Source of the DNA: a virus
Taxonomy: Duplodnaviria; Caudoviricetes
Virus record (IMG/VR): IMGVR_UViG_3300037467_001352
Span: 1-54,750 of that record
Length of the DNA stretch: 54,750 bases
Reading direction: 5' to 3' (one strand)
Position 1 is the stretch's first letter. Each line of letters opens with the position of its first letter. The translations under genes were made by a program, and so were the position numbers. Below are positions 2,515 to 31,474 of this stretch, piece after piece. Under the pieces are notes generated by a model, which did not search any database, was not told the origin of the DNA, and saw only the letters and a list, made by a program, of their open reading frames with translations.

Positions 2515-3198
2515 TTAAAGGGAAACGTTGTGGTCCGCGATCTTGCGGCAAAGACCGACGAACATGTCCTGCGGAAGATCGTTCTTCATGATGTTCGCAA
2601 TTCGCATTACCAGTTGCACGTTTCCGAGCACATAATTTCCGCTGCTGTCGATCCGATCGATGCTTGGCGCTTTGTAATTGCGACCGTTACGTCCCTTTGA
2701 ACCGGGCGTTTTCCAGTCCATTTCAAGACCCGTCAGCGAGCACACGCCGCGCTGGTCAAGAAACATGCCGAGAACATCGTCTTTATCGAGAAAGAACGCG
2801 ATGCCCCTGGCCGTTGCACCACCGCGCGCACCAAGCGTCAACTTAGCAAAATACGCGTCAAGTGTGGGTGAATAAAGATCGTGTTCGACATGTTGCCCAC
2901 GTGCCTGCGTGCGACAACGCGCGCAATGAGGATGCAGATAAATGGCCCATCGGTTCCGCGCGACGCGAGAACTGACGGTTTTGGGTGGCGATACCGGACA
3001 AAACTGGTCTTGCGGCAATCGGCGATGGCAGCGACGGCATTCGAGAAATGGAATACGGTCGCCGGGTGCCGGATCGAAGCCGATATTAACTGCCTCCGCC
3101 GCGAACTCGTAGGGTTTGCGAATTATTGATTTGGAGGGTGCCTGAGACACAATTTTCGAGCCTGCCTGAGAATTATCACAAAGTGCCCGGCTTGTCAA
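2515..3198 (-). CDS. His-Me finger/HNH-like endonuclease with Zn-binding CxxC pairs (start uncertain)
   Basis: CRRC and CARC pairs, CSLTG, SIDRIDSSGNYVLGNVQLV..IANIMK motif; lies upstream of terS. Confidence 0.75.
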   Translation of the reverse strand: MTSRALCDNSQAGSKIVSQAPSKSIIRKPYEFAAEAVNIGFDPAPGDRIPFLECRRCHRRLPQDQFCPVSPPKTVSSRVARNRWAIYLHPHCARCRTQARGQHVEHDLYSPTLDAYFAKLTLGARGGATARGIAFFLDKDDVLGMFLDQRGVCSLTGLEMDWKTPGSKGRNGRNYKAPSIDRIDSSGNYVLGNVQLVMRIANIMKNDLPQDMFVGLCRKIADHNVSL

Positions 3199-3695
3199 CG
3201 CGTCTGTGAACTGTCAACGCTAAATCGCAGTTTCCAATCGCGAATCCCTGCTGGAACATTACCGCGAAGTGCCGCAAAATGGCGAATGGCAGCGATGAGT
3301 TGCGCCTTAGCCGTGCCCTTACGTTGACTACGAAGTTCGTCAATCCGGCGCGGATCATGCTCCACAAATAGCACGGCGGTCGCTACCGCTAAATATATGG
3401 TTCCCTGCAGGTCCGACGTCCACTGGCTATAGACTCGACAGAGGTCCGACCGACGCGCGGCCATGTCGTCAGCGGCGTCCGATCGCAGTTCCGACGATGG
3501 AATACCCAGGTCCGGATCGCGTGGCGCGGGGAGGCCAGCGGCGAGGTGGTGCGCCGCCACGATTTCGTCAGCTGCCGTATGCTCGTAAATGGACAGCGAG
3601 CGTTTCAGGCGCGCAAGCGGTGCTTCTGCCATTCGCTGGCGCGCCCGCTTGATCTTGTTGGACTGCTTCGGTTTGCGACGTGTCTTAGCGGCCAC
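3195..3695 (-). CDS. DUF6456-like putative late regulator/antiterminator (likely GTG start at 3695)
   Basis: PLARL...AADEI N-terminal pattern and C-terminal HTH-like VLFVEHDPRRIDELRSQRKGTAKAQLIAAIRHFA; Q-like position at the end of the early operon. Confidence 0.5.
   Translation of the reverse strand: MAAKTRRKPKQSNKIKRARQRMAEAPLARLKRSLSIYEHTAADEIVAAHHLAAGLPAPRDPDLGIPSSELRSDAADDMAARRSDLCRVYSQWTSDLQGTIYLAVATAVLFVEHDPRRIDELRSQRKGTAKAQLIAAIRHFAALRGNVPAGIRDWKLRFSVDSSQTR
3206..3218 (-). promoter_or_regulatory. 13-bp motif copy (GTTGACAGTTCAC); second TTGACA just downstream; candidate late promoter
   Basis: gtgaactgtcaac on +; second tgtcaa at 3193-3198. Confidence 0.65.
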
Positions 3696-3864
3696 GCGGA
3701 CCCCGCCATGCTTCTTGAATGTCGGAAGCGAGATCGGTCCACGCGATGACTGTGCCGAGAACGATACCTGCAGTCGCGAACAGAGGCATAAGAGTGATAA
3801 TCGCCGCGCGCCGTAACCACGGATTACGGATTTCATTGAGCGCGCGGGGGCGGCGCGGTTTCAT
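3685..3864 (-). CDS. Small membrane protein
   Basis: One hydrophobic helix; overlaps its neighbours. Confidence 0.55.
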   Translation of the reverse strand: MKPRRPRALNEIRNPWLRRAAIITLMPLFATAGIVLGTVIAWTDLASDIQEAWRGPRGR

Positions 3865-4091
3865 GCTGCACACTTCGTTGGAACCGATTCACCGGCGAAC
3901 AGCGTGCGCCACCCTTTTTCGGTCACGTGAGACAACGCATACCCGATATCTTCAACCAAGCCCTTTTCACGAAGACTTGTGAAAGTGCTTGACGCCAACG
4001 GCTTTTCGACTGTGTTCGGGAGGGGATGCAGTCGACCGCCGCGAGCCGAAGCGCGCTTGAGCACGTCGAATTGAACCTGAGTCAAGATCAT
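3861..4091 (-). CDS. Hypothetical protein, winged-helix-like
   Basis: LTQVQFDVL...SLREKGLVE...VTEKG pattern; ATGA coupling. Confidence 0.55.
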   Translation of the reverse strand: MILTQVQFDVLKRASARGGRLHPLPNTVEKPLASSTFTSLREKGLVEDIGYALSHVTEKGWRTLFAGESVPTKCAA

Positions 4092-4306
4092 GACCACTTC
4101 ATCCGTGGCGGCAGGCCGTTGACGAGGTTCGATCGGACGCCCCACAGGCCGGGCGCTTCCGGAATCTCGTAGCGTTCGGCACGCACCAGATGCCCGGCGC
4201 CGCCGCGATCGTGCCAGAATTTCTGAATGTGGGCGGCAAGCACACCGGCCGCGTATTTCGTGAAAGCGTCTTTGTCAGGCGGCAGGATGGGCTTTGGCAT
4301 GGGCAC
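4088..4306 (-). CDS. Hypothetical phage protein
   Basis: 72-aa ORF downstream of a motif promoter; coupled to the next gene. Confidence 0.6.
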   Translation of the reverse strand: MPMPKPILPPDKDAFTKYAAGVLAAHIQKFWHDRGGAGHLVRAERYEIPEAPGLWGVRSNLVNGLPPRMKWS

Positions 4307-4341
4307 TCCGAAGGAAGTGCCGGCAGGATGGCCTAGTTTAT

Positions 4342-4354
4342 GAAAACTGTCAAC
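4342..4354 (-). promoter_or_regulatory. 13-bp motif/sigma70-like promoter
   Basis: GTTGACAGTTTTC; TTGACA-N17-CATCCT. Confidence 0.65.
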
Positions 4355-4359
4355 GAAAA

Positions 4360-4626
4360 TTATTCACTCAACACCCGATACACATACGCCCGCGTACAGC
4401 CGAGCAACTGCGCAATCCGCACCGGTTTGATGCCTTGCGCACGCAAGCCGACGATCTGGACCCGCTTTTGGCTCGTCGCAATGCGTGCCTTCCGTTTTCG
4501 CCGCGGCCGCTCCGCGCGCAGTGTTTTATAGACCCAACTGCGCGACACGCCGAGCGCCGCAGCGATTTGAGCCGGATCCTGCCCGTCGTCGCTACGCGCG
4601 ACGATATCGATGACGGTGTGGTTCAT
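4360..4626 (-). CDS. Tandem helix-turn-helix DNA-binding protein
   Basis: Two HTH units: PAQIAAALGVSRSWVYKTL and PVRIAQLLGCTRAYVYRVL. Confidence 0.75.
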   Translation of the reverse strand: MNHTVIDIVARSDDGQDPAQIAAALGVSRSWVYKTLRAERPRRKRKARIATSQKRVQIVGLRAQGIKPVRIAQLLGCTRAYVYRVLSE

Positions 4627-6245
4627 GCAGCGACCTCCGCTGCGGAGGGCATCGGCACGGGAAGCATGGCGCCGTCCGCTGTGACCTGAATTGCTGATGT
4701 GCGCGACGCGCCATTCGGCAGCAGGAGGGCATTCACCGCGCCGCCATCCGCACGCAACCACCGTGCCGCGCGAGCATGGTCAGCGAACACGCCGGTCAGG
4801 TCATATCGCTCCGTCCCGGCGACGACCGTAACCGCGCCTTCCTCGCGCCCAAACACGCGCAGGACCGGCAACCAACCGCCCGCGCGTTCCGTCCCCGTGC
4901 GATAACTCGCGATCAGCGCGGCGCCGGACGGGGTGTCGAACAGTTTGTGGGGTTTTGTCTCGCCATCGCCGGCGGGCTTGCGCATGTCGTGCCCGCAGCA
5001 CGGGCAATCCAAGTGATGTTTGGCGATACTCTCGAGGCACGCTGGACACAACTTGGTCATAACCGCGTCGCAGGACCAGCAATTCCGCGCAGCTGCCGCG
5101 TTCCGCTTCCCGCATTCCTCGCACGATACCAGTCGCGCTGCGGTATTCTGCGGGCGGATGAAGTCGAGCGGCCCGTGTCGGTCGATATTCCCGGCGAAGT
5201 CGAGCACAAGCCCGTCCGCCTTGCCGGCGGCGATCGACGAATCAATACTTCCGCCGATTGTGCGCAGCAGGCGACCCGTCATCTGGATATAGAGGCCGAG
5301 CGACTTGGTCGCGCGCCGCATGACCAGCATGTCGACCTCTTGGACGTCGAACCCGGTCGTCAGCGCCGCCACGTTGACCAGGCAGCGCAGCCGACCGGCT
5401 CGAAACGCTGCAATGGTCGCAGCACGCTCGCCCGCAGGCGTCTCGCCGAGCACGAGGCCGGTCGGAATACCCCATTCGTTGAGCCGCTGCGTCATGGCAC
5501 GGGCGGCCTTGGTCGACGCCTCGAAACACAGCCACGCACGACGATTCGCGCCGTGGTGGCGCATCTGCGCGATGTGGTTGTCGATCGCCGCAATCATCTG
5601 CGCATCTTGCGAATCGGCGGTGTATTCGCCCTGACGCGTTTTGAGGCGTGTCGTGTCGATCGTGTCGTCGGCCGGTGCGGAGAATGCCGGCACCAGATAG
5701 CCGTCATGAATTCCGTTCAGAATGTCATAGCGATAGACGACCTTATCGAAGGGTGCGCCTTCACCTTCGACCAATGAGCCGCCTTGCAGACGAAAAACGG
5801 TTCCTGAAAATCCGGGCATACGCGGATATCCGAGCGCACGGTGTAACTCGCGATACATTCCAGATTCAGAATGAGGAATCAGATGGCATTCATCTACCAA
5901 TAAATTCTGAATCTGTCCGAACGAAACCGCGTGACGATATACCGATTGAATTGCGGCGCTGATGACCGGAGCGCGCCAGGTTCGCTCGCCAAGTGCAGCG
6001 GCGTTGATACCCGTTTGCAAGCCGAGCAGGCGGCATGCCTTGGCATTCTGCTCGACCAGTTCGCGCGTATGCGCCCCGATGATGACGCGTTCACCACGTG
6101 CGACGGCGCGACGCGCGACCTCTGCCATGATCAACGACTTGCCGGATCCGACACAGGAATCGACGAGCGGGCGCAACAGCCTTTCGCGCCACGCCGCTTC
6201 AACAGCGTCGGCAGCTTCAATCTGATTCGGACGGAGAGTGATCAT
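4623..6245 (-). CDS. SF2 DEAH-box helicase with C-terminal zinc ribbons (RadD/YejH-like)
   Basis: GSGKS, DECH, LTTGFD and QMTGRLLR motifs; four CxxC pairs. Confidence 0.93.
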   Translation of the reverse strand: MITLRPNQIEAADAVEAAWRERLLRPLVDSCVGSGKSLIMAEVARRAVARGERVIIGAHTRELVEQNAKACRLLGLQTGINAAALGERTWRAPVISAAIQSVYRHAVSFGQIQNLLVDECHLIPHSESGMYRELHRALGYPRMPGFSGTVFRLQGGSLVEGEGAPFDKVVYRYDILNGIHDGYLVPAFSAPADDTIDTTRLKTRQGEYTADSQDAQMIAAIDNHIAQMRHHGANRRAWLCFEASTKAARAMTQRLNEWGIPTGLVLGETPAGERAATIAAFRAGRLRCLVNVAALTTGFDVQEVDMLVMRRATKSLGLYIQMTGRLLRTIGGSIDSSIAAGKADGLVLDFAGNIDRHGPLDFIRPQNTAARLVSCEECGKRNAAAARNCWSCDAVMTKLCPACLESIAKHHLDCPCCGHDMRKPAGDGETKPHKLFDTPSGAALIASYRTGTERAGGWLPVLRVFGREEGAVTVVAGTERYDLTGVFADHARAARWLRADGGAVNALLLPNGASRTSAIQVTADGAMLPVPMPSAAEVAA

Positions 6246-6967
6246 ACGAATTGCCCTTTTGAGTTCCGCTCAGAACCACTTGCACATCGTAACTTTGCGG
6301 AAGCACTCATCCGAGCACGCACTTCGGCAGAACGTCGCATACCTTTAAGGCTTACCGTTCGACGCTCGATTTCAGCAGTTGATTGTTTACGGCCCCTTCC
6401 TGCAATACTCAGTTTTGCGCGTTGTTCTTTCGATATCTCCTTACCGCGATGTGCTGCGCCTATCTTTGCCCGCGTTTCATCCGATGCACGCATGCCGATG
6501 CGCTTCGATGTTCGCTTCGCAATCCATTCGGGCGATTGTTTCCGACCTTTATTTGCTGCCGAAATTTTAGCCCGTGTTTCGGGCGACAGGCTGCGACGCA
6601 ATTTCTGTTTGGTAGATTCTCGATGCACGAACCCGGTCGGTCCCGCACCACCGTCTGCGACGTTCACGCTACCGAAAGCGTGTCGAAGTATCGCGATCCA
6701 ATGCTTTTCCCGTAGTGTCCAATCTTGCGTCGCAGGTACGATTTCCATCGCTTGAATGCAGACGAAATCGCCGCACTCGCGCAATCTGGAATGCAAAGGT
6801 CGATCCGCACCACGTACGGCATCCCGAATATGCGTTTTAAATCGTCGCGAAAGACTAAAGACGGTCTTGCCGCAATAAAACGGCACACCCACGGGGCTTA
6901 GTCGCGTGTCGAAAATCCAATATATCGTGGTGGACCGATCGTCTTTGCGCCTTGGCATGCCCCACAT
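6242..6967 (-). CDS. GIY-YIG-like homing endonuclease with NUMOD3 repeats
   Basis: TIYW...FYCGKT...RRFKTH...REKHWI...NVADGG, followed by repeats such as SPETRAKISAANKGRK and SDETRAKIGAAHRGK. Confidence 0.8.
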   Translation of the reverse strand: MWGMPRRKDDRSTTIYWIFDTRLSPVGVPFYCGKTVFSLSRRFKTHIRDAVRGADRPLHSRLRECGDFVCIQAMEIVPATQDWTLREKHWIAILRHAFGSVNVADGGAGPTGFVHRESTKQKLRRSLSPETRAKISAANKGRKQSPEWIAKRTSKRIGMRASDETRAKIGAAHRGKEISKEQRAKLSIAGRGRKQSTAEIERRTVSLKGMRRSAEVRARMSASAKLRCASGSERNSKGQFV

Positions 6968-6980: not shown

Positions 6981-6993
6981 GCAAACTGTCAAC
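6981..6993 (-). promoter_or_regulatory. 13-bp motif/sigma70-like promoter
   Basis: GTTGACAGTTTGC, just downstream of a terminator. Confidence 0.65.
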
Positions 6994-8646: not shown

Positions 8647-8659
8647 GTAAACTGTCAAC
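8647..8659 (-). promoter_or_regulatory. 13-bp motif/sigma70-like promoter
   Basis: GTTGACAGTTTAC; TTGACA-N17-CAGGTT. Confidence 0.7.
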
Positions 8660-10789: not shown

Positions 10790-11509
10790 CTATTTATATT
10801 TGCGTGAACTGTCAACGAAAATAGGCAGCAAAGCGTGACAAGCGTTCCAGTAAAGCGACGCCGCGGTGAATTCGGACCAGGTATCCAGATCGCACCCTTC
10901 GACATGAGGAGCGACCGTCGTCCAAGGGCGGGGAGGCGCAACAAGTCGCTGCGCCCGTTCCGTGCAGAGCATCCGAACGTCGTATTCCTTGACGATTTCC
11001 TGCACTTCCGGCGCCAGCGGCCACGAAAGGCCAGCGGCCTGATAGACAGCCGTGTCCAGAACCGCTTTGAGCGAAGTCACGGCCGCTTTCACCACATCGG
11101 CGTTGTGCAGATCGCCGGTCGTGTGGACCGCGTGCGCTTGGATCGCTTTCAGGACAGGCGTTGGAATGTCGCCAATGAACGCTTCATGAGCATCGTGCAG
11201 GAGGAATGCCGCCGCGGCGTCTTGGCGTCCGGTGTCACGCATGATCGCGCGGGCACCTTCGCAACAATGCTGCGCGACAGACAACACGCCCTTTGTCGTC
11301 TGACCAGCGAAGCGCGGCACGCGCGCCAGCGTAACGGCAATAGTACGGAAATTGATCGTCGCCGGGTCCGGATTGACCAGGTCCAGCGCGCGTCCTTCGA
11401 TCGTCTGTAACCATGGCGCGCCGGTGGGGAGGTCGGGAACGAGGGGTGGCGCGTCCATAACGGTCAGCGTGACCGTGCCCTGCACCGCCACGTCGCGAAT
11501 ATCGACCAT
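10790..11509 (-). CDS. HD-domain phosphohydrolase (YfdR-like 5'-deoxynucleotidase)
   Basis: RFAGQT..SVAQH...LLHDAHEAFIGDIPTP; GGAGG SD before ATG 11509. Confidence 0.85.
   Translation of the reverse strand: MVDIRDVAVQGTVTLTVMDAPPLVPDLPTGAPWLQTIEGRALDLVNPDPATINFRTIAVTLARVPRFAGQTTKGVLSVAQHCCEGARAIMRDTGRQDAAAAFLLHDAHEAFIGDIPTPVLKAIQAHAVHTTGDLHNADVVKAAVTSLKAVLDTAVYQAAGLSWPLAPEVQEIVKEYDVRMLCTERAQRLVAPPRPWTTVAPHVEGCDLDTWSEFTAASLYWNACHALLPIFVDSSRKYK
10804..10816 (-). promoter_or_regulatory. 13-bp motif/sigma70-like promoter
   Basis: GTTGACAGTTCAC in the last codons of the HD gene. Confidence 0.65.
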
Positions 11510-12450: not shown

Positions 12451-12463
12451 GCGAACTGTCAAC
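12451..12463 (-). promoter_or_regulatory. 13-bp motif/sigma70-like promoter
   Basis: GTTGACAGTTCGC; N17-GACGGT. Confidence 0.6.
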
Positions 12464-13930: not shown

Positions 13931-14172
13931 GCTGCACCTTGCATCAATATCTGTGAATCGTCAACGAAATTATGCAAACAAACGACGCATAGGGGTTCAC
14001 CATCCTCATTCCTGCCTTCCGCCACGCCGGCGCACCGCAGCGATGAGCACGCCTGGTCGCCGGATCCGTCACATGCCTCACAGGCGCCCGTGAACCGCGG
14101 GGAGGGGTCGTGAGCGCCGCGGACGCTGTACGAGCGGCCCGAGCCGGCGCAGTCGGGACAGGGGAGGGTCAT
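13927..14172 (-). CDS. DnaJ-type CxxCxGxG zinc-finger protein
   Basis: CPDCAGSG and CEACDGSG, plus further Cys pairs. Confidence 0.65.
   Translation of the reverse strand: MTLPCPDCAGSGRSYSVRGAHDPSPRFTGACEACDGSGDQACSSLRCAGVAEGRNEDGEPLCVVCLHNFVDDSQILMQGAA
13953..13965 (-). promoter_or_regulatory. 13-bp motif/sigma70-like promoter
   Basis: GTTGACGATTCAC; TTGACG-N17-CAAGGT. Confidence 0.6.
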
Positions 14173-14369: not shown

Positions 14370-14410
14370 GTCATTTCACTCCCTGTTTGCGTCTAACGTA
14401 ACGCCTTTCT

Positions 14411-14423
14411 GTAAACTGTCAAC
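14411..14423 (-). promoter_or_regulatory. 13-bp motif/sigma70-like promoter
   Basis: GTTGACAGTTTAC; N16-TACGTT. Confidence 0.65.
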
Positions 14424-14464
14424 ACATAATCTCACTGTTCGTTCCAAATAAAATCCCATTATGA

Positions 14465-14477
14465 GTTGACAGTTTTC
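14465..14477 (+). promoter_or_regulatory. 13-bp motif copy facing the AT-rich region
   Basis: GTTGACAGTTTTC, back to back with the 14411 copy. Confidence 0.55.
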
Positions 14478-14489
14478 CTGACGCCGACA

Positions 14490-14870
14490 CCGCGCGGTTA
14501 CGTTTCGATCGCCAATGGCGGTTTGCGCTGTATACGGATAAGTGGAGTAGGGTCGGTTTCAAAAGTTTTGGGAGTTACAAAATCTCTTTGATTCTATTGA
14601 ATAAACTTATGTAACTAGAGAAACCGAAGTATTATTAAGTGTCAGAAACAGCCTAAATTAACCATTTATTAACTATAGTAAGATGTGTAGAAGTCTATAC
14701 GGGTCTTAGAAGGCCGGTTACGCCAGTTACGCCAGTTACAAACGCCTTTTATATAGTAACCTCAGTAACTTAAAAATTCCGGCTAATATTCAACTTTGTA
14801 ACTTTGCTCTAAATCATTGACGAAATCATAGTGTCAACCTGTAATTACACCGATTTACTGTCAACTCGTA
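14490..14870. other. AT-rich non-coding region with GTTAC/GTAAC iteron-like repeats; putative replication origin
   Basis: Largest non-coding, AT-rich stretch; GTTAC at 14497, 14574, 14717, 14726, 14735 and GTAAC at 14611, 14756, 14765, 14798. Confidence 0.55.
14658..14673 (+). promoter_or_regulatory. Canonical CtrA-binding box
   Basis: TTAA-CCATTTA-TTAAC matches the TTAA-N7-TTAAC consensus. Confidence 0.7.
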
Positions 14871-14912: not shown

Positions 14913-15275
14913 ATGCGAAACCATCTGCTCCTGCTCGCCATGCTTTGCCTAGCCGGTTGCGCGACCGAACAGCCGCTCATGACGTCGGTGCCGGTCGGGA
15001 CCGAGACAGTGCGAGGCGACTACCGCGCGCTCGCAGCGTGCACATTCCGGGCGATCGGCAGCGACGAGGTCCGAAAGGTCGACCTGGACAACGAGGTGCA
15101 GATTGCTGACGTGGTCGGCACCGGAATCACCCGCTGGAAGGCGGTGTTTCGCCCGGCCGCGTCGCGCGGTATGAGCACCGTGGAAGTGTTCGGCATGCAG
15201 GTGACGGGCCGCGTAGGCGGTCACGAACACATCATGCCTGCAGTGCGCGAGTGCGAGGCTAAGGGCGCTCGCTGA
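14913..15275 (+). CDS. Lipoprotein
   Basis: MRNHLLLLAMLCLAGC lipobox; opposite strand to neighbours. Confidence 0.75.
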   Translation: MRNHLLLLAMLCLAGCATEQPLMTSVPVGTETVRGDYRALAACTFRAIGSDEVRKVDLDNEVQIADVVGTGITRWKAVFRPAASRGMSTVEVFGMQVTGRVGGHEHIMPAVRECEAKGAR

Positions 15276-15450
15276 ATCGCTCTGCGGCGCGGGCGATCAA
15301 CTTACGCTCGACACACGCTTTCATTTCGGACGGCTGCTCGCGCTGACACTCACGCCGCGCAATGTCCCCGTACGTCTCCGGTTTGGGAGACGGGGCGAAT
15401 GCCAGGTAAGCCGCGACGGCGAACACAGCGATGATGAGAATGGCGCGCAT
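15259..15450 (-). CDS. Small membrane-anchored protein
   Basis: N-terminal TM/signal helix and a Cys pair; 1 nt after the S24 gene stop. Confidence 0.6.
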   Translation of the reverse strand: MRAILIIAVFAVAAYLAFAPSPKPETYGDIARRECQREQPSEMKACVERKLIARAAERFSERP

Positions 15451-16119: not shown

Positions 16120-16136
16120 TAGGAATTATAGCCTTA
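16120..16136 (-). promoter_or_regulatory. TATAAT -10 inside an imperfect palindrome (TAGGAATTATAGCCTTA); putative autoregulatory operator
   Basis: Upstream of the S24 gene; near-identical sequence at 31242-31255. Confidence 0.55.
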
Positions 16137-20072: not shown

Positions 20073-20085
20073 GTGAACTGTCAAC
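20073..20085 (-). promoter_or_regulatory. 13-bp motif/leftward early promoter
   Basis: GTTGACAGTTCAC; TTGACA-N17-CATATT. Confidence 0.7.
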
Positions 20086-20096
20086 AAAAACACATA

Positions 20097-20145
20097 CGGA
20101 CTAAGGGTAGCACGCGCCAAATTCGCATGCGCTACCCGTAGTCCG
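20097..20145 (-). terminator. Long hairpin/terminator after the arm-binding-domain gene
   Basis: cggacta-a-gggtagc...gctaccc-g-tagtccg stem; T-rich run follows on the minus strand. Confidence 0.6.
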
Positions 20146-20152
20146 CCGTGAT

Positions 20153-20578
20153 TTAGGGACGCCAGCTGGCGCCTTTGATTTCCAGTTCGCGCAAAAGGCG
20201 ATCGTGCAGCCCTTCTTGCGGGTCGATACCCTTGTTCGCCAGGTCGCGGATGATCTTGGTCAAATTACGCGCCTTTTCGAGCGTCGTACCGGGATGCTCG
20301 CCGATTTTGAGCATGGGCCGGCTGTCGTTCACCTCGTAATGAGCGTGAAACGAAATGCCTCCCGTCTTGCGAACGATGATGCGCAGACCCGCTTGCACGG
20401 TATCGGACACTGTCATTCGATCGAGTGGAATCCGTCCCGATTTCATATCATCGGCAAGGTTTTCCAACATGCGAAGTGAAACCTGACCGGTCGTTCGACG
20501 GGTGCCAGGCTGTATTGTGTCGACGTTGCGAACTTTGTTCGCCGGTCGACCTACTCGTGTGGTTTTGGCCATTGTCAT
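20153..20578 (-). CDS. Stand-alone integrase arm-type DNA-binding domain protein (Arm-DNA-bind_3/DUF4102-like)
   Basis: SDTVQAGLRIIVRKTGGISFHAHY...MLKIGEHPGTTLEKAR...KGIDP; no catalytic domain. Confidence 0.8.
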   Translation of the reverse strand: MTMAKTTRVGRPANKVRNVDTIQPGTRRTTGQVSLRMLENLADDMKSGRIPLDRMTVSDTVQAGLRIIVRKTGGISFHAHYEVNDSRPMLKIGEHPGTTLEKARNLTKIIRDLANKGIDPQEGLHDRLLRELEIKGASWRP

Positions 20579-20584: not shown

Positions 20585-20700
20585 AGTGATTCGGTCAGTA
20601 ACTATCGCATGTCAAGAGAGTTCCAAAAAATTCTTCTGTTGAGATGCAACGATTTCTGTTGACCGTAAACATTTATGCGAATTATAGTGCGAGGGCATAC
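20585..20700. promoter_or_regulatory. Divergent promoter (switch) region
   Basis: Leftward TTGACA at 20615-20610; rightward TTGACC-N18-TATAGT; motif variants GTTGAGATGCAAC (20638) and GTTGACCGTAAAC (20658). Confidence 0.65.
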
Positions 20701-20723: not shown

Positions 20724-21353
20724 ATGACGATTATGGTTAAACTATCACACCCGCCGCTGGAGTTGGCGTTCGAAGTCGGCTCTTTCAACGAGGCGGTGGG
20801 TGTGCTCGAGGCGGAGAAGGGGACCATTCTTCGGGCGTTCTCGCTCGTCGATGGCGGCGAGACTGCTTTGCCAGTGGCCGCTGGCACCACGGAAACGACC
20901 GCTACCGAACAGCCGGGCAAGCGCGGCCGCAAGCCGAAAAATCAGCCCGATCCGGCGACCGCCAGCGCTCCGCCGCCCGCGCCGATCCCAACCGCCGCAC
21001 CGGCGGTGCCGGACCAGTCCATCCCCGGCGACCTGTCTATTCCGGCATTCCTGCAACGTCCTGCTGCACCTGCACCGGCCGTCGCGGCTCCGCCAGCGCC
21101 GCCACCTCCGATCCCGACCGCTCCGCCGGTGGTGCCTGCGGCGCCGTCATTCGTGCTCGGCAACAAGGTCGCGGACGACCTGCAAAAGCGCAAGGACGCT
21201 TCGCTGGACAGCGGCAAGTCGCTGCATGACTGGCTGATGCCGAACGCACCGTTCCTGATCGCCGGCGCGACGCTCGACGAGGCTATCGCCGTTCTGCGCC
21301 TCACGTCGGACGACAAGGTCGAGGCTATTGCCAAGGCCTTGCAGTTGGCGTAA
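20724..21353 (+). CDS. Pro/Ala-rich early protein containing DLSIPAFLQR
   Basis: First rightward gene; GAGGA SD; long low-complexity linker. Confidence 0.75.
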   Translation: MTIMVKLSHPPLELAFEVGSFNEAVGVLEAEKGTILRAFSLVDGGETALPVAAGTTETTATEQPGKRGRKPKNQPDPATASAPPPAPIPTAAPAVPDQSIPGDLSIPAFLQRPAAPAPAVAAPPAPPPPIPTAPPVVPAAPSFVLGNKVADDLQKRKDASLDSGKSLHDWLMPNAPFLIAGATLDEAIAVLRLTSDDKVEAIAKALQLA

Positions 21354-21361
21354 ACACAACT

Positions 21362-21374
21362 GTTGACGATTCAC
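21362..21374 (+). promoter_or_regulatory. 13-bp motif copy followed by a GC hairpin
   Basis: GTTGACGATTCAC; hairpin at 21381-21406. Confidence 0.6.
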
Positions 21375-23194: not shown

Positions 23195-23207
23195 GTTTAC
23201 AGTTCAC
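23195..23207 (+). promoter_or_regulatory. 13-bp motif copy overlapping a predicted -10
   Basis: GTTTACAGTTCAC; upstream TTGACT (23176)-N16-TACAGT. Confidence 0.55.
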
Positions 23208-24164: not shown

Positions 24165-24201
24165 TCCCTCGGCGAGAACCCACGCTCGCTATGACAGGTT
24201 T

Positions 24202-24236: not shown

Positions 24237-24247
24237 AGGGATTGACG

Positions 24248-24799
24248 ATGGCGCTTGTTCGAACAAAACCTTCGACCGCGACGTCTGAAATTCTCAACGC
24301 GCTGATTGCCGCATCCGATGATGCTATCTGGGCAACAGAATTGGCATTGCTATCCGGCGGTCGGCGTGTGGATTTCTGGACCTTGGTGCCGGCTGCCTCT
24401 CGCGGTTTTCGTGCGACTGCTTATGAGATCAAGGTAAGCCGCAGTGACTACAAGCGCGATAACGATGAGAAGCAGTCTGGCGCGCTGAAATTCTCCGACC
24501 GCTTCTGGTACGTCACGCCGCCCGGGCTGCTGCGGAAGGACGAACTCCCCTCCTATGCCGGCCTCCAAGAATGGGACGGCAAGCAATTCAGCATCGTCCG
24601 CAAAGCACCAATGCGTTCAAAGGCCGAACCGGATTGGGAGTTCATCGTTTCGATCTTGCGCAACAGCGGCGAATGCCGTCGCGACGTCGGATTGTTTAAA
24701 GCACAGATCGCCTTTTTCGAGCACCAGAACGAGCAGCGACGCACGCAAGATGCCCATCGGAACCAGATGAGTATGCGAAAGTGGTTGAGGCGCGCATGA
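24248..24799 (+). CDS. MmcB-like PD-(D/E)xK nuclease
   Basis: RRVD...YEIKVSRSDYKRD..EK....FSDRFWYVTP. Confidence 0.75.
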   Translation: MALVRTKPSTATSEILNALIAASDDAIWATELALLSGGRRVDFWTLVPAASRGFRATAYEIKVSRSDYKRDNDEKQSGALKFSDRFWYVTPPGLLRKDELPSYAGLQEWDGKQFSIVRKAPMRSKAEPDWEFIVSILRNSGECRRDVGLFKAQIAFFEHQNEQRRTQDAHRNQMSMRKWLRRA

Positions 24800-26835: not shown

Positions 26836-27203
26836 AACTCGAACCTGACCTCGTCGAAGCCATCAACGCGCTACCGGAACGGTTGCGCAAATATATTCAC
26901 CACATCGAAACGGATGCGGATCCGGCTGGAACGTTGCGCGAGAATTTTCAGCTGCGCGAGGAAAATGCGCTGCTGCGGAAGGAATGCGAGCGATTGGCGG
27001 CGACCGATCAATCCGACGCGGCCGATGCGAAGCGCTTCCGCTGGTTGCTCGCCGGCAGGGGGTATTTCATGGAGGAATGTGAACTGTGCGGCCCGTGGTC
27101 TGATAAGGATGACACGATGGAGCATGACCGGGCGCGTAAAGCAATTGACGAGGCGATGCGCGACGAAGCGCCCGTGATTGATCATGGCCCGCGCTCCATC
27201 TGA
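26832..27203 (+). CDS. Hypothetical coiled-coil protein
   Basis: INALPERLRKYIHHIET and DAKRFRWL; ATGA coupling. Confidence 0.65.
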   Translation: MKLEPDLVEAINALPERLRKYIHHIETDADPAGTLRENFQLREENALLRKECERLAATDQSDAADAKRFRWLLAGRGYFMEECELCGPWSDKDDTMEHDRARKAIDEAMRDEAPVIDHGPRSI

Positions 27204-27582
27204 ATACGAAATTCAGCGCGCCTTGTGCGGATGGCTCGACGGCTGGCCCGACAAGCACGGCACACCGACCAAAACGCCTGCACTTATGCCGGACTGCGTC
27301 TATTTCCATACGCCGAACGGCGGGAGTCGGCGCGACGCATTCGAAGGTAAGCGCCTCAAAGATATTGGATTGAAAGCAGGTATATTCGATCTGACGTTCC
27401 TGCACGGTGGCCGATTCTTCAAACTGGAACTCAAGGACGCCACCGGAAGGCTGTCCGACGAGCAGCTGACCATGTGGCAACGATACGAGCGGGCCGGGGC
27501 GGCGGGAATCGCTTGGGCTAACAATCTGGCAGCGGCCAAGGCGCAAATTTGTGCGTGGGGCCTCGTTCGGCTTGATATTTAG
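27184..27582 (+). CDS. VRR-NUC domain nuclease
   Basis: EYEIQ, HTPNGG, GIFD and ELK...GRLSDEQ. Confidence 0.85.
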   Translation: MARAPSEYEIQRALCGWLDGWPDKHGTPTKTPALMPDCVYFHTPNGGSRRDAFEGKRLKDIGLKAGIFDLTFLHGGRFFKLELKDATGRLSDEQLTMWQRYERAGAAGIAWANNLAAAKAQICAWGLVRLDI

Positions 27583-27583
27583 T

Positions 27584-27596
27584 GTTGACAGTTAAC
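27584..27596 (+). promoter_or_regulatory. 13-bp motif/promoter of the CtrA-like gene
   Basis: GTTGACAGTTAAC; N17-CTATCT; contains a TTAAC CtrA half-site. Confidence 0.7.
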
Positions 27597-27639
27597 AAAT
27601 AATGGGTCTATCTTTCTCCCATCAGCAAGGGAGACGGTT

Positions 27640-28269
27640 ATGGATAGCCCCCGCGAATTCCGCAGTTTCAGCACGCAGGACGTGATTTCGGCGTTTGCCC
27701 GACAGGGAGTTGCGATCGCGACGATTTCGCGGGCTATCGCGGTTCCTGAAAGCCAGGTTAACGGCGTTTGCCGGCGAGCGTTCGAAAAGGGCGATATCGC
27801 TGCGATGCCCCCGGAGCGCACGGAGGACGTGCGCGGCGCTGCGGCGACCGAACTCGCCAATCTGCGCGAACGTGTTGAAACGCTCGAATTCATCCTCCGT
27901 GAGACTGAAACGAAGCGATCGAACACGGAGGATTTGTTGCTCGGCGTCGCGCACATGAGTCGGACGGAATCGCAAATCATGGCGGCGCTACTTGATCGAG
28001 GTCGCGCGTCCCGTCAGGCGATATATTCCCGCATTTACGGCAACCGGAACGAAGCCGATCAGGCGGAGCCGAAAATCGTCGACGTTATGATTTGCAAACT
28101 CCGCAAAAAGCTCAAGGTCTATGACGTCGAAGTCAACACGATATGGGGCTATGGCTACGAACTCGACGCGGAGAACGCGCGAAAGTTGCGCGCGATCGCG
28201 CACGCCGTGCTGCCTGTGACTGACTCGCCTCCGCTGTGTCCAGCGGACGACATGCAGGTCGCGGCGTGA
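27640..28269 (+). CDS. Receiver-less OmpR/PhoB winged-helix regulator with CtrA-like DNA-binding domain
   Basis: EPKIVDVMICKLRKKL...NTIWGYGY versus CtrA ELKIIDVFICKLRKKL...ETVWGRGY. Confidence 0.85.
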   Translation: MDSPREFRSFSTQDVISAFARQGVAIATISRAIAVPESQVNGVCRRAFEKGDIAAMPPERTEDVRGAAATELANLRERVETLEFILRETETKRSNTEDLLLGVAHMSRTESQIMAALLDRGRASRQAIYSRIYGNRNEADQAEPKIVDVMICKLRKKLKVYDVEVNTIWGYGYELDAENARKLRAIAHAVLPVTDSPPLCPADDMQVAA

Positions 28270-28391
28270 TGCGCTTGGTCGCCGCCCTGGTTGCACTGGT
28301 GCTCACGACTGCACCAACAAATCGTCAGTGTGTCGGCGGCTATGACGCAAATGGAAATCCGGTTTTCGTCCTCGGGTGGAGGGTATCTTGA
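28269..28391 (+). CDS. 40-aa secreted or membrane peptide
   Basis: MRLVAALVALVLTTAP...; coupled at both ends. Confidence 0.4.
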   Translation: MRLVAALVALVLTTAPTNRQCVGGYDANGNPVFVLGWRVS

Positions 28392-28846
28392 ACCTCATTA
28401 ATTTCGTGCGCGAAAGCAATCGCATTGAAGGAATCATTCGAGAGCCGACCCGTCAGGAAATCGACGCTCATGACTCCTTGCTCAGTCAATTTACGATGAG
28501 AGCAACGCTGCTCGGCAACTTTCAGCGGGTCGTCGCGCCGGGCATGCCGTTACGTGAACGGGACGGAATGGACGTCCGTGTCGGTCATTATTATGCGCCG
28601 CCAGGTGGTCCAGAAATAGTCAAGCGTCTACAGACGCTCTGTCGGAAAGCCAATCACTGCGGCACTCAACGCGAAGCGTGGCGCTTGCATGTCGACTTCG
28701 AGTTGTTGCATCCATATCTGGACGGCAATGGACGAACCGGTCGCGCGTTGTGGGCTTGGACTATGAAGGCTCAGGGGTGCAACGTGTTTGCGCTGCCTTT
28801 CCTTCATCGCTTCTACTATCAGACCCTTGAGGCGGCCGGGAAATGA
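28388..28846 (+). CDS. Fic-domain protein (class II, N-terminal inhibitory helix)
   Basis: HPYLDGNGRTGR Fic motif; SNRIEG inhibitory motif. Confidence 0.88.
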   Translation: MNLINFVRESNRIEGIIREPTRQEIDAHDSLLSQFTMRATLLGNFQRVVAPGMPLRERDGMDVRVGHYYAPPGGPEIVKRLQTLCRKANHCGTQREAWRLHVDFELLHPYLDGNGRTGRALWAWTMKAQGCNVFALPFLHRFYYQTLEAAGK

Positions 28847-29172
28847 CCACCCCCGAACCCCTAATCACGCTGGAACAGGCGTGCGAACTTATCCCCACGG
28901 CCACCCCGGCCACGTTGAAGCGCCAGATTCGACAGGGTAAATTATGGGCCAGCAAGCCCGGCAAGCGATATCTGACAACAGCCGCGGCCGTTCGGGAGTT
29001 GGTCGTAGCGTGCCGCGTCGAGCCAAAGGCGCAAGACTATGGTTGCGACCAGCGCGATATGACGCTGCTGGAAAGCTCACCCACGCCGCTGCATATGTCA
29101 TTCTTGATGGATCCCGGCAAATTGGAACTGGCTGCGGCCAAGGCTCACTTGTTGACGCTGAAAAGGCGTTAG
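28843..29172 (+). CDS. xis: Excisionase-like HTH protein
   Basis: LITLEQAC...TLKRQIRQGKL...GKRYLTT; overlaps the integrase start. Confidence 0.7.
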   Translation: MTTPEPLITLEQACELIPTATPATLKRQIRQGKLWASKPGKRYLTTAAAVRELVVACRVEPKAQDYGCDQRDMTLLESSPTPLHMSFLMDPGKLELAAAKAHLLTLKRR

Positions 29173-30287
29173 CCGACCACGTCCGAAAGAAACATTCGAA
29201 TGTCATCCGCGTCGGGACCAACGACCCGTCGCAGATCGAAATTCAGGACGTGCTCTCGCTATATCTCCGAAATGTCGCGATCAACCACGCGCGCCCACCG
29301 GAGACTAAGGCGCGCGTCGATCGTCTTGAGGACTTTTGGGGAAAGAAACGTCTTTCCGATGTGAGCGGCAAGACCTGCCGCGAGTACGTCGCGCTGCGCA
29401 GCACGCCCGCTGCCGCACGCCGCGAACTAGAAGAGTTGCGCGCCGCCATCAACTACCACCGGCGCGAGGGGCTTCATAACAAAATCGTTTCGGTCGTGCT
29501 GCCGGAGCGTGAGCCGCCCCGCGAACGATGGTTAACGCGTGATGAGGCGGCGCACCTCATTTTCACGACGTGGCGATATCGCGACACGAGCGCCGTACGC
29601 GAGGGATTCCGCGGGTTGCAGGTCATCAACCGCAAAGACACGAATGGTCATAAGGCGGGAACTTATTATTATGCATGGAAGGGCGGCCCGCGTATTTTCG
29701 AGCGGTTCGGAACGCCCGCCTTTGAGGCGCGATTTCACGAATTGACGAAAGAGCGTCCGAACGAAGTGTTCCCCCGCAGACACATCGCGAAATTTATGTT
29801 GGTCGCCTCTTACATGGGGTCACGAGCCAGCGTCATTTGCGCTGCGTCGATCGAACCGGAACGGCCAGCCGGTAAGCCGTGGATTGACCTTAGGACCGGT
29901 TTCTTTTACGGCCGCGGCACCGGCGAGCGCGAGACTAAAAAGCGTAAGCAGTTGGTCCGCGTTCCCGGTTCCTTGTTGGCGCACCTTCGTCGCTGGCGGC
30001 GCGCCGGTCAGCGGTACGCCGTCGAGTTTCGGGGCGAACCTGTCTTGCGGGTCAGCAAGGGTCACGCGCAGGCCGTGCGGGCGGCAGGGTTCGGCCCCGA
30101 CGTGACGCCGCACACCTGGCGGCATACCGTGGCGTCGTGGCTCATGCAGAGCGGCGTCAATGCCGGCGATGCGGCGGAATTCCTCGCCATGTCGGAGGCG
30201 GTGCTGCTTAGGGTTTACCGCCACCAGCGGCCGGACGTTTCAGGGCGGATCGCCGCCGCGCGCCGGGCGCATCGGAAGGCCGGCTAA
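29010..30287 (+). CDS. int: Tyrosine integrase
   Basis: Catalytic R (MGSR), K (TKKR), HTWRH and Y (VYRH); adjacent to attP; likely GTG start 29010. Confidence 0.92.
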   Translation: MPRRAKGARLWLRPARYDAAGKLTHAAAYVILDGSRQIGTGCGQGSLVDAEKALADHVRKKHSNVIRVGTNDPSQIEIQDVLSLYLRNVAINHARPPETKARVDRLEDFWGKKRLSDVSGKTCREYVALRSTPAAARRELEELRAAINYHRREGLHNKIVSVVLPEREPPRERWLTRDEAAHLIFTTWRYRDTSAVREGFRGLQVINRKDTNGHKAGTYYYAWKGGPRIFERFGTPAFEARFHELTKERPNEVFPRRHIAKFMLVASYMGSRASVICAASIEPERPAGKPWIDLRTGFFYGRGTGERETKKRKQLVRVPGSLLAHLRRWRRAGQRYAVEFRGEPVLRVSKGHAQAVRAAGFGPDVTPHTWRHTVASWLMQSGVNAGDAAEFLAMSEAVLLRVYRHQRPDVSGRIAAARRAHRKAG

Positions 30288-30504
30288 CCGCCAATGGCCG
30301 CCAAATCTATGCGTGAACGGATCGTGATTATGGCGCTCCGGAGCGACTGAAAATCCCTGTAAAACCGCTGTTTTTCGTTTCGCAACCCTCGTTCGGGACG
30401 AGGGGGTCGCAGGTTCAAATCCTGCCACTCCGACCAATTAAAATCAGGGGTTTTTGAACCCCGCCCGGCCTCCCGAGCCGTTACCGCCAATGAAACCGCC
30501 AATG
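30287..30504. repeat. Arm-type integrase binding sites flanking the attP core
   Basis: ACCGCCAATG at 30287, 30483 and 30495; variant GCCGCCAAAT at 30297. Confidence 0.7.
30387..30436 (+). mobile_element. attP core: 3' part of tRNA-Pro(CGG)
   Basis: Anticodon arm CCTCG-TTCGGGA-CGAGG, T-arm GCAGGTTCAAATCCTGC, 3' CCA; acceptor 5' strand and D-arm absent. Confidence 0.9.
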
Positions 30505-30509
30505 ATACG

Positions 30510-30836
30510 TCAAACGGCGGATTCGTCGTCCGGCTTGTATTGCAGCCAGCGGATCCCCGGCTTGTCGTCGTCCCATGTGAAAACGAAGCCGCGGGCCTGC
30601 AAATAGACGTGCAGTTTTGCGACCAGGTCGAGGCCGACACCGCGCGGCAGACCGAACACCGCTTCAATGCGACGGATCGAACTTTCGCTTACGCCCGATT
30701 CCGCCGCCAGCTGCGATACGCTCATGCGCAGCATGGCGCGTGCGGCGCGGATTTGACACGCGGTCAGAACTCGCATTCCGGACGGGAGCGGGGTCGACGT
30801 CATCGGCAACAGATTTCCAAGGGTAATTTCCGGCAT
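30510..30836 (-). CDS. XRE-family HTH regulator
   Basis: QIRAARAMLRMSVSQLAAESGVSESSIRRIE. Confidence 0.85.
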   Translation of the reverse strand: MPEITLGNLLPMTSTPLPSGMRVLTACQIRAARAMLRMSVSQLAAESGVSESSIRRIEAVFGLPRGVGLDLVAKLHVYLQARGFVFTWDDDKPGIRWLQYKPDDESAV

Positions 30837-30982
30837 GGCTATAGCCCAATATTCAAAGCAAGGATGCAAATTTGCCGATAAACCTTATCAGAACAGATAT
30901 CGTTCTTGCTTGACTAAATTTCGTTCAAGATTTAACAAATATTGCCCATCGGGGGCGTAAACCTAGAAAGGTCAAATGTGTC

Positions 30983-31165
30983 GTGGGGAGTTGCGTTAGT
31001 GAGTCAATCGAAAAAGCCGATGTGAAAGAATCAGAGGAAGCCGCCGGCCGGGCTTTCCTCGCGCTCATGTCAGACCTGGCCGACCTCAAGACTGCGCATC
31101 AGCGGGTCATCGTCCAAATAGAAGCGCTCGCGCTCCGATATGGAGTTTCGGCAGTCGTCACCTAG
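30983..31165 (+). CDS. Small helical protein, paralog 1 (ALRYGV)
   Basis: Similar to 31292..31474; hairpin follows at 31179-31206. Confidence 0.55.
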   Translation: MGSCVSESIEKADVKESEEAAGRAFLALMSDLADLKTAHQRVIVQIEALALRYGVSAVVT

Positions 31166-31220
31166 AGACTGTCAACTGCAGGAGCGGGCGCAAATGCCCG
31201 CCCCTGTGAATATATGCTGA

Positions 31221-31264
31221 TAGGTCAGAATCCCTATTGACGGCTAAAATTCCTAACGTATGCT
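31221..31264 (+). promoter_or_regulatory. Sigma70-like promoter with two palindromic operator candidates
   Basis: TTGACG-N16-TATGCT; TAGGTCAGAATCCCTA and GGCTAAAATTCCTA. Confidence 0.6.
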
Positions 31265-31291
31265 TCAATCTTCACAACCCGGAGGCGTAAC

Positions 31292-31474
31292 ATGCGTAAG
31301 GAACAAAACACGAACGAAACTGCGACCGCTCGAGCCATGCACGTTTTGGTGCGGGAGGCGCGACGCACGGCAGAGAGCGCCGAGCGCGTGCGCCTGGTCG
31401 TCGATGCGATGGCGCTACGCTACGGCGTTGGCCCAACTGAGACTGGCGACCAGCTGGTCGACTGCCCGGAATAG
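31292..31474 (+). CDS. Small helical protein, paralog 2 (ALRYGV)
   Basis: GGAGG SD; similar to 30983..31165. Confidence 0.6.
   Translation: MRKEQNTNETATARAMHVLVREARRTAESAERVRLVVDAMALRYGVGPTETGDQLVDCPE

Follow-up and report, generated by a model that had tools for sequence, protein, structure and literature searches.

The question raised by positions 3195-31474 of the viral record IMGVR_UViG_3300037467_001352 is how a temperate phage of an alphaproteobacterial host controls its lytic genes, and whether it does so, as an initial annotation had proposed, through the cell-cycle and gene transfer agent (GTA) circuitry of its host in place of a lambda-type switch. The whole stretch of DNA analyzed here (the window) is 54,750 bp long, is rated 100% complete in its IMG/VR record with a 127-bp direct terminal repeat, and is the complete genome of a mosaic temperate siphovirus of a Pseudolabrys-like Xanthobacteraceae host; positions 3195-31474 form the early, replication and regulatory half of that genome. 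As drawn, the proposed integrated circuit is only partly supported. The reading that we favor, and to which we give roughly even credence, has two layers: a set of promoters with a lineage-specific motif, whose design is shared with related phages, and a RogA-type repressor and operator layer that appears to have been captured from the host and is unique to this phage. What stands out from the sequence is a predicted host RogA-type repressor and its operator, apparently grafted onto a phage that has about 20 lineage-specific promoters and a conserved gene for an integrase arm-type domain.

The phage and its relatives

A codon-model gene call gave 76 genes in the whole window. Per Pfam and PHROGs searches, these include a structural and lysis set (terminase, portal, Mu-F-like protein, scaffold, P22-type coat, tail genes, and endolysin), a replication set (PrimPol-VapE primase-helicase, DUF2800 exonuclease, Enc34/gp2.5-type single-stranded DNA-binding protein, and DNA polymerase), two methylases, homing endonucleases, a tyrosine integrase, and an excisionase-like open reading frame (ORF). 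No RNA family was detected in the window by Rfam at gathering thresholds, and no tRNA was found in it. A megablast search of positions 14000-32000 against GenBank phages found nothing shared beyond a methylase stretch of 150-310 nucleotides (nt).

For comparison, five IMG/VR relatives (G001 to G005, with the present phage as G000) were retrieved with a 12-sequence alignment of the g36 protein and were fetched in full, G002 being a 13-kb fragment. An alignment of the primase yielded three more partial relatives, too few for a decisive test of covariation between the arm protein and the promoter motif. Searches for loci with single proteins returned no locus for g36 and two distant loci for g44. 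Coordinates of all features are collected in Table 1.

A predicted RogA-type repressor and its operators

The best-supported part of the circuit is g30, which appears to be a recent capture of a host RogA-family regulator together with its operator. The initial annotation had placed an S24 protein here, and the Pfam match confirms it (PF00717, Table 1); the S24 domain is C-terminal, and a weak Xre-like helix-turn-helix (HTH) match precedes it at the N-terminus. When aligned to UmuD', the protein keeps GDSM (Ser136) and VKEL (Lys173), and a putative cleavage site, Ala97-Gly98 in FAEAGTGG, can be read from the sequence. The autoprotease residues are intact, and we predict a self-cleaving repressor of the LexA/CI type.

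Proteins 93-95% identical to that of g30 occur in Pseudolabrys/Rhizobiales assemblies, on contigs of up to 2.2 Mb. The 80 species-genome loci that were fetched carry homologues at 69-79% identity and come mostly from Xanthobacteraceae (Pseudolabrys, Rhodoplanes, Nitrobacter, and Afipia), and 564 relatives were found in species genomes altogether. At both the protein and the DNA level, g30 is the sole gene of its neighborhood with host homology, and none of the five phage relatives has a homologue. The family was found in 133 of 301 sampled Alphaproteobacteria at E≤1e-5 (about 75 at full length), a tally that takes in the unpublished genome G048, from which nothing is concluded here. Close members of the family keep GDSM and the Lys; those at 36-51% identity have lost one or both.

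RogA has been described as a 213-aa LexA-like protein with HTH and S24 domains and without cleavage residues, found in 819 of 1331 alphaproteobacterial genomes (PMC9632790). The RogA-GafYZ system controls the GTA of Caulobacter (PMC9632790, PMC11150451), in which the signal that takes RogA off DNA is still unknown (PMC9632790). The g30 product is like RogA in being a 213-aa HTH and S24-like protein of a family spread through Alphaproteobacteria, in the GG-N6-TTCC geometry of the phage box described below, and in having host relatives that carry DUF6456 gafZ-like genes with similar boxes upstream. It is unlike RogA in that it keeps the Ser and Lys that RogA lost, is phage-encoded, and has a phage micro-ORF as one candidate target. 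The S24 protein itself fits the RogA-like repressor with operators that the initial annotation had suggested, the predicted operators lying at 16120 and 31242.

Alignment of 55 host upstream regions shows an invariant box, AGG[CT][TA]ATAATTCCTA, whose core 8-mers are present in 55-57 of the 60 full-length loci examined. An identical box in the phage (GGCTATAATTCCTA) covers the -10 of the g30 gene's own promoter, while a second (GGCTAAAATTCCTA) sits in the promoter spacer of a 60-aa ORF, orf60, 37 nt before its ATG. At ≤2 mismatches, these are 2 boxes in the phage against 0.09 expected, a number reached by 1 of 100 shuffles; a looser 12-mer box with 3 mismatches was uninformative (32 found, 23.6 expected). 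No such intergenic AT-rich RogA-type box was found in the relatives. The mapped RogA site contains GGAA-N4-TTCC repeats (PMC9632790), and the two phage boxes, GGCT-ATAA-TTCC and GGCT-AAAA-TTCC, each have one perfect half-site, with GG at the distance found in the RogA site. On the host side, DUF6456 (gafZ-type) genes scored above cut-off in 25 of 41 sampled host-family genomes. WWTTCCTA boxes lie within 1.5 kb upstream of 10 of 18 host gafZ-like loci, against 0.77 in shuffles (maximum 6 in 500 shuffles; 2 of 18 for the part comprising the gene and its downstream region), although the 18 loci are related and not independent.

The LexA-controlled small antirepressors of coliphage 186 (Tum) and of the Salmonella Gifsy prophages act as small triggers. 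By analogy with these modules, of which the Gifsy antirepressors are treated in PMC3121763, the simplest reading of orf60 would be a small gene under a damage- or RogA-type signal. The likeness is that the predicted operator of an S24-type, damage-sensitive repressor stands in the promoter of a small phage ORF, and that the other candidate repressors here (the arm protein and the XRE protein) have no S24 domain. The differences are that the sensor here is of the RogA family and not LexA, that the phage carries its own host-derived copy of it, and that orf60 has no similarity to any known antirepressor.

This layer, seen in the present phage alone, would thus consist of a captured LexA-like repressor of the RogA family, with an intact predicted autoprotease and its own operator, and of a second operator copy between the -35 and -10 of orf60. 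The repressor, whether phage or host, should silence orf60 until it is cleaved or otherwise inactivated, and the derepressed orf60 would then act as a small trigger in the manner of Tum and the Gifsy antirepressors. To this extent the earlier suggestion that the S24 protein controls a microprotein and ties the phage to the GTA system is reasonable, given an operator at the S24 gene's own promoter and another in the orf60 promoter spacer.

Distributed predicted promoters with a lineage-specific motif

In the layer shared with the relatives, nearly all lytic operons would start at TTGACA fused to GTT(C/T)ACAGA, with a weak -10. The element reads, on the sense strand, GTTGACAGTT followed by (C/T)ACAGA. 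Across the whole window, ACTGTCAAC has 22 matches at ≤1 mismatch against 7.9 expected, and 22 was reached in none of 100 shuffles. Sixteen sites lie within one mismatch of GTTGACAGTT, 14 of them intergenic and 2 within the final codons of the upstream gene, and all 16 are oriented toward the gene that follows on the same strand. With four further copies of weaker match, the number of sites rises to about 20, so that the distributed sites of the initial annotation, which had put them at about 17, are borne out. The motif contains a perfect TTGACA, which is the consensus -35, with a weak nAnnnT hexamer 17 nt later; the -10 hexamers are weak and variable, and the -35 side is conserved. Such sites stand before early, lysis, and tail operons, and two of the sites (20076-20085 and 20658-20667) are also picked up by a generic promoter scan.

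We take the motif sites to be predicted promoters with short or no leaders. For the sites at 6984, 8650, 13956, 20076, 36205, and 40445, the predicted -10 ends 4-9 nt before the start codon, and such near-absent leaders suggest that these six promoters give leaderless or near-leaderless mRNAs. Elsewhere, the promoter at 14465 (+) faces those at 14829 and 14856 (-), from which transcripts would converge over an AT-rich iteron region, and the promoter at 31167 (-) runs antisense through g48 toward the XRE gene. Transcriptional interference is possible at both places.

The relatives have the same promoter design, with a sequence after TTGAC that is particular to each lineage. In G001 and G004 the motif is GTTGACTTTCCG plus a CCG..CGG palindrome (13 and 21 sites, respectively), in G005 and G002 it is GTTGACAAAC...GTAGTAAGGT (24 and 7 sites), and in G003 it is TTGACAGTAAAC, with a fuller form TTGACAGTAA(A/G)C. 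The top k-mers of G003 were rejected as a regulatory motif because they come from a 15-bp tandem repeat in the coding sequence of a pentapeptide-repeat protein; the gene concerned (locus L022, 36466-37344) contains about 30 copies of the repeat and adjoins the AT-rich region of that genome. Since conservation at the motif sites goes beyond what sigma-70 needs and changes between lineages, it implies a phage-encoded factor that would read them, as a repressor or as an activator.

Distributed repressor sites are known as the stoperators of L5-type mycobacteriophages and as the conserved inverted repeats of phiC31. The motif sites resemble these in being some 20 copies of a short asymmetric element oriented with transcription, and differ from them in that the motif includes the promoter -35 hexamer and also stands before late genes.

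The arm-domain gene g35

The best candidate for the factor reading the motif sites is, we infer, g35. Its 141-aa product contains a stand-alone integrase arm-type DNA-binding domain at residues 54-122 (PF13356, 40.8 bits against a cut-off of 27) and no tyrosine-recombinase catalytic domain, and homologues are 133-155 aa long. A homologue is divergent from g36 in all five relatives and lies beside the primase in two further loci, so that the gene is present beside g36 or the primase in 7/7 relatives covering the region. The arm-domain protein that had been placed at the switch is accordingly real and stands at a conserved divergent junction. TTGACA is present upstream of g35, and a copy of GTTGACAGTT is absent. 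Being monocistronic, with its own terminator and without the motif at its promoter, g35 is a separately controlled single-gene unit amid the early region, and this layout would fit a repressor gene. An origin-binding role is an equally fair reading of the same gene. Its candidate targets would be the motif form GTTGACAGTTCACAGA or the GTTAC iterons; the iteron AGTTAC of the AT-rich region also occurs in the spacer after TTGACA of the putative g35 promoter (20590-20620, -). The extra proteins of G001 and G003, both of which have integrases, yielded no S24 or HTH_3 repressor, and neither did the 88 of 128 extra proteins of G004 and G005 that were scanned (the remaining 40 are structural-region proteins).

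The AT-rich region, the CtrA-type box, and g44

Between the facing motif promoters lies an AT-rich non-coding region with 10 GTTAC/GTAAC iterons against 1.1 expected (maximum 6 in 2000 shuffles). A syntenic region of lowest GC, with iterons of its own and an A/T core, is present in G001, G003, G005, and G002, which makes "putative origin" a reasonable name for 14370-14870. The region contains one exact TTAA-N7-TTAA box (TTAACCATTTATTAA), within which TTAACCAT is also found. In the window as a whole, one such box compares with 0.11 expected and at least one occurs in 11 of 100 shuffles; within the AT-rich composition, its chance is about 4% of shuffles. Allowing ≤1 mismatch gives 2 sites where 4.3 are expected, which is no enrichment of near-sites, and a full CtrA site is present in none of the five relatives. 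CtrA-controlled phages ("lytic deferment") are described as having a dense cluster of CtrA sites (PMC9437464). The present phage resembles them in infecting Alphaproteobacteria and in having a TTAA-N7-TTAA box within a large intergenic stretch, and differs from them in having one site, with none complete in its relatives. The box is probably incidental.

The CtrA-like protein of the initial annotation, g44, turns out to be a generic winged helix-turn-helix (wHTH) protein. It matches PF00486 (E 1.5e-8) and gave no Response_reg match even at E≤5, and its NCBIfam score for CtrA (31.8 bits, cut-off 350) is the same as that for TctD (31.8) and near that for PhoB (29.4), the cut-offs being 270-350. 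A search for homologues sharing words with g44 returned only g44 itself, and a homologue is present in 2/5 relatives, being missing from G004 and G005. The g44 operon includes a Fic-domain gene, xis, and int. The Fic/Doc-domain protein (28376-28846, +; PF02661 E 8e-9) lies between the wHTH gene and xis/int and has a homologue in G003 and in locus L157. Of the proposed CtrA wiring, then, the box and the origin-like region exist, and the connection to the host cell cycle is not supported by a single non-conserved box and a wHTH protein that is not CtrA-specific.

An FtsZ-tail motif and C-terminal tails

An FtsZ-tail motif and a set of Ala-Ala (AA) C-termini, both named in the initial annotation, are real features that are separate from the RogA layer. 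FtsA, ZipA, and other partners dock on the C-terminal peptide of FtsZ. In g36, which reads ...GDLSIPAFLQRP... around the motif, DLSIPAFLQR copies the core of this peptide: FtsZ of three Xanthobacteraceae genomes ends LDIPAFLRRQAN, and IPAFLQR in g36 compares with DIPAFLRR in these, the core IPAFL(Q/R)R being the same. Across 60 members of the g36 family, P107 never varies, and L110 and R112 are kept in at least 90%, amid Pro/Ala-rich linkers that are otherwise variable; 130 relatives were found at E≤1e-3 among 50%-identity representatives, and all five phage relatives carry the FtsZ-motif gene. We consider the likeness to the FtsZ tail to be real and selected, as judged from this pattern of residues. 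The motif sits in a disordered linker, as in FtsZ; unlike the FtsZ peptide, it is internal, not C-terminal, and is joined to a KRGRKP patch, which resembles an AT-hook, and to two small domains without a known fold. The structural model of g36 (pLDDT, the predicted local distance difference test score, of 83) is confident for two small domains and disordered in the middle, where the motif forms a short helical turn, and no fold match was found in the PDB at E≤0.001. For FtsA of the Pseudolabrys type paired with g36 residues 88-132, the predicted complex scored 0.00 against a mark of 0.32, in a run without controls that speaks neither for nor against binding. Kil and T7 gp0.4 are known phage division inhibitors. 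Among the titles listed in a literature search, none described a phage-encoded copy of the FtsZ C-terminal peptide.

Ten of the 76 called proteins end in AA, mostly as VAA, against 1.2 expected (p 2.7e-7). In six genomes taken together, the count is 38 of 451, against 18 of 1514 in ORFs not called as genes; a baseline from host loci is a rough bound, since repeated orthologues dominate it. The tail recurs in orthologues of the helicase, the small terminase, the methylase, a 413-aa nuclease-like protein, and the wHTH protein. By the precedents of ssrA and CtrA, such tails may lead to ClpXP. In G001, G004, G005, and G002 (loci L018-L031), 18 called proteins end in ...PPPPY or ...PPY, where a rough estimate expects about 0.4, and they include the primase, g34 and g08 homologues, and a methylase. 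The codons of this tail differ between copies, which indicates that the peptide itself is selected. No such tail was found in the present phage, in which g34 ends in PPPPC, or in G003. The AA tails of this phage, like the PPPY tails of its relatives, hint that phage proteins may be tagged systematically at their C-termini.

Weighing the circuit against its alternatives

Each binding and regulatory step of the two-layer reading is one that we infer from sequence, and several observations count against it. The micro-ORF orf60 matches no PHROG, Pfam, or Atlas family, resembles no known antirepressor, and falls below the gene-caller threshold. The assignment of g30 to the RogA family rests on architecture, distribution, and operator geometry, and exact GGAA-N4-TTCC occurs only once in the phage, in coding sequence and at chance frequency. 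The S24/RogA module is absent from all five relatives and is thus not needed for the switch of this phage type. In the promoter layer, the identity of the arm protein tracks promoter class weakly: the G002 protein and a G005 paralogue, which have the same motif, are 63% identical, and those of G000 and G003, to which TTGACAGT is common, are 54% identical, yet those of G001 and G004 are 42% identical despite a common motif. The spacer palindrome of G001 and G004 would also be a better match for a dimeric HTH protein than for an arm domain. A search for regulators common only to G001 and G004, or only to G002 and G005, returned just the second arm paralogue and antisense artefacts. Lastly, the XRE protein g47, beside the integrase, could be a rival candidate immunity repressor. 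Built around g47, a conventional switch with an added moron would have this protein as a CI-like immunity repressor and g48/orf60 as the Cro-side transcript, with the RogA-type gene as an accessory that, for example, keeps host gafYZ and the GTA off in lysogens and has no role in induction, and with the repeated motif as simply this phage's strong sigma-70 promoter. The integrase, the XRE gene, and divergent small genes do form a classic layout, and G004, the one relative of five with a g47 homologue, likewise has it adjoining its integrase. The S24 gene is a single-gene host insert in this phage only, host gafZ-like genes with similar boxes are common, and the motif has a perfect TTGACA. We nevertheless consider such a switch rather unlikely, because the second RogA-type box lies exactly in a phage promoter spacer, where a host-only accessory gene has no need of it, because XRE is missing from 4/5 relatives, among which G001, G003, and G005 still carry integrases, and because the lineage-specific conservation past the -35 exceeds what a bare sigma-70 promoter needs.

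It is also conceivable, if improbable, that the motif is an activator site, with an early phage protein (g08, g07, or the wHTH protein g44) binding beside or over the -35 and driving a positive cascade through the roughly 20 promoters, and with the arm protein acting at the GTTAC iterons instead, in origin binding or replication. This would account for weak, variable -10 hexamers next to a conserved -35 side; g08 and g07 have homologues in 4/5 relatives, the arm gene adjoins the primase and replication operons, the AGTTAC iteron recurs in the spacer of its putative promoter, and the iteron regions are syntenic. Against it, g44 is missing from G004 and G005 despite their having the same promoter design, the identity of g08 does not follow motif class, and no activator-type family could be assigned. 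Least probable, and by our estimate very unlikely, is the full circuit of the initial annotation, in which cleavage of the S24 protein frees a microprotein that inactivates the arm-domain repressor and opens about 17 promoters, while CtrA and FtsZ-tail mimics hold the host cell cycle, with no lambda-type switch. The operator copy before orf60, the conserved and monocistronic arm gene without the motif at its own promoter, the existence of the motif promoters, the conserved FtsZ-tail motif of the g36 family, and the VAA end of g44 are all in its favor. Its components, however, do not co-occur: only the arm gene (7/7) and the FtsZ-motif gene (5/5) travel together, and the S24 gene and the CtrA box are each found in 0/5 relatives, the wHTH and DUF6456-like genes in 2/5 each, and the XRE gene in 1/5. 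Nothing connects orf60 with the arm protein, either; for CtrA there is a single box, which the five relatives lack, and no enrichment of near-sites, the wHTH protein has neither a receiver domain nor a CtrA-specific score, and an XRE gene stands divergent from g48 beside the integrase.

Other regulators and neighboring genes

The DUF6456-like protein that had been assigned to 3195-3836 (g04) does not match Pfam PF20057 at E≤5 as a protein or at E≤10 in six frames. Its nearest Atlas clusters, which are feature-based (score 0.92), have PF20057 in 19-20% of their members, and hhalign against 18 host DUF6456 domains aligned the last 38 columns (E 0.03, probability 1.6%). Homologues are present in 2/5 relatives. 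These weak leads make a distant GafZ-like relation possible, and if it is true, g04 would stand where a late-gene regulator might be expected, immediately upstream of the packaging genes.

Within the S24 module, g29 has no homologue in the relatives or the host loci. On the opposite strand inside this unique module, a 134-aa ORF (14871-15275, +) with a lipoprotein-like signal (LAGC) and no homologues in the relatives is likely an accessory gene expressed in lysogeny. A small Cys-rich ORF (14169-14369) contains the sole exact GGAA-N4-TTCC, at 14299-14310. At 16149-17348 (-), two overlapping frames each match DNA-methyltransferase PHROGs (E 2.4e-76 and 1.1e-36), and the DNA of 16161-16486 is 81-92% identical to Burkholderia, Xanthomonas, and Ralstonia phages; one of the two may be the true frame, or a frameshift may be involved. 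Three homing-type endonuclease genes, at 2515-3198 (HNH/endonuclease VII-like), 6242-6967 (GIY-YIG and NUMOD3), and 21465-22052 (HNH and AP2), split otherwise syntenic modules and are not in the relatives.

Table 1. Positions of the regulatory and associated features in the window
Feature	Position	Strand	Evidence or remark
g04, possible distant DUF6456/GafZ-like regulator	3195..3836	-	just upstream of HNH-terminase late genes
Motif promoter GTTGACAGTT	3209..3218	-	
Motif promoter	4345..4354	-	
g08, small protein with two HTH_23-type motifs, candidate regulator	4360..4761	-	PF13384 E 3.6e-16
Motif promoter	6984..6993	-	
Motif promoter	8650..8659	-	
Motif promoter	10807..10816	-	
Motif promoter	12454..12463	-	
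Motif promoter	13956..13965	-	2 mismatches
AT-rich non-coding region, origin-like	14370..14870		39% GC; GTTAC/GTAAC iterons; flanked by facing motif promoters
Motif promoter	14414..14423	-	
Motif promoter	14465..14474	+	faces 14829/14856
CtrA-type box TTAACCATTTATTAA	14658..14672		single, exact TTAA-N7-TTAA
Motif promoter	14829..14838	-	2 mismatches
Motif promoter	14856..14865	-	1 mismatch
g29, 63-aa protein with hydrophobic N-terminus	15259..15450	-	directly downstream of S24 gene
g30, predicted host-derived RogA-family HTH and S24 repressor, 213 aa	15452..16093	-	PF00717 E 3.9e-24
RogA-type box GGCTATAATTCCTA	16120..16133	-	over -10 of S24 gene's own promoter; identical to host box
Motif promoter of primase operon	20076..20085	-	
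Intrinsic terminator after g35	20086..20152	-	hairpin -38.6 kcal/mol, z -6.7, then U run
g35, stand-alone integrase arm-type DNA-binding domain protein	20153..20578	-	PF13356; monocistronic
Motif promoter of g36	20658..20667	+	2 mismatches
g36, first gene of rightward replication operon	20724..21353	+	small N-domain, AT-hook, FtsZ-tail-like motif, 4-helix C-domain
AT-hook-like KRGRKP in g36	20919..20936	+	R67 and R69 at least 90% conserved
DLSIPAFLQR in g36, copy of FtsZ C-terminal peptide core	21030..21059	+	residues 103-112 of 209
Motif promoter	21362..21371	+	2 mismatches
Motif promoter	23195..23204	+	1 mismatch
Motif promoter of g44	27584..27593	+	perfect
g44, receiver-less OmpR/PhoB-type wHTH protein	27640..28269	+	ends VAA; behind perfect motif promoter
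Excisionase-like ORF	28843-29172		beside tyrosine integrase
Tyrosine integrase	28944..30287	+	phrog_1 E 3.8e-23, PF00589
g47, XRE-type HTH protein	30510..30869	-	PF01381 E 5.7e-5; beside integrase, divergent from g48
g48, 60-aa paralogue of orf60, just upstream of it	30983..31165	+	BLASTP E 1e-6, 34% identity over 44 aa
Motif promoter	31167..31176	-	1 mismatch; antisense to g48
Promoter of orf60	31237..31264	+	TTGACG, spacer with RogA-type box GGCTAAAATTCCTA (31242-31255), TATGCT
orf60, 60-aa ORF, candidate damage-induced effector	31292..31474	+	GGAGG ribosome site
Motif promoter, lysis genes	36205..36214	-	outside 3195-31474
Motif promoter, tail genes	40445..40454	-	outside 3195-31474
Motif promoter, tail genes	47117..47126	-	outside 3195-31474

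Implications

The lineage-specific sets of about 20 promoters should lend themselves well to the search for a global phage regulator of a new type. The g36 family, with about 130 sequence clusters and a conserved copy of the FtsZ tail, points to a way, widespread and so far undescribed, in which phages of Alphaproteobacteria could act on the division machinery. We would tentatively entertain, at well short of an even chance, that the phage copied the RogA-type master repressor of its host's GTA and put the operator of that repressor before a small trigger gene, with the FtsZ-tail/AT-hook protein acting in parallel. If this is true, one signal would govern both the induction of the prophage and the activation of the host GTA, a lysogen would carry an extra dose of the GTA repressor, and g36 could compete for or recruit FtsZ-anchoring proteins. 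A cleavable, phage-borne member of the RogA family, together with a simple reporter promoter, would make the signal that releases RogA testable. Should the RogA operator link hold, it would be a natural example of a phage that draws on the control circuit of a domesticated phage, the GTA, in the same cell.

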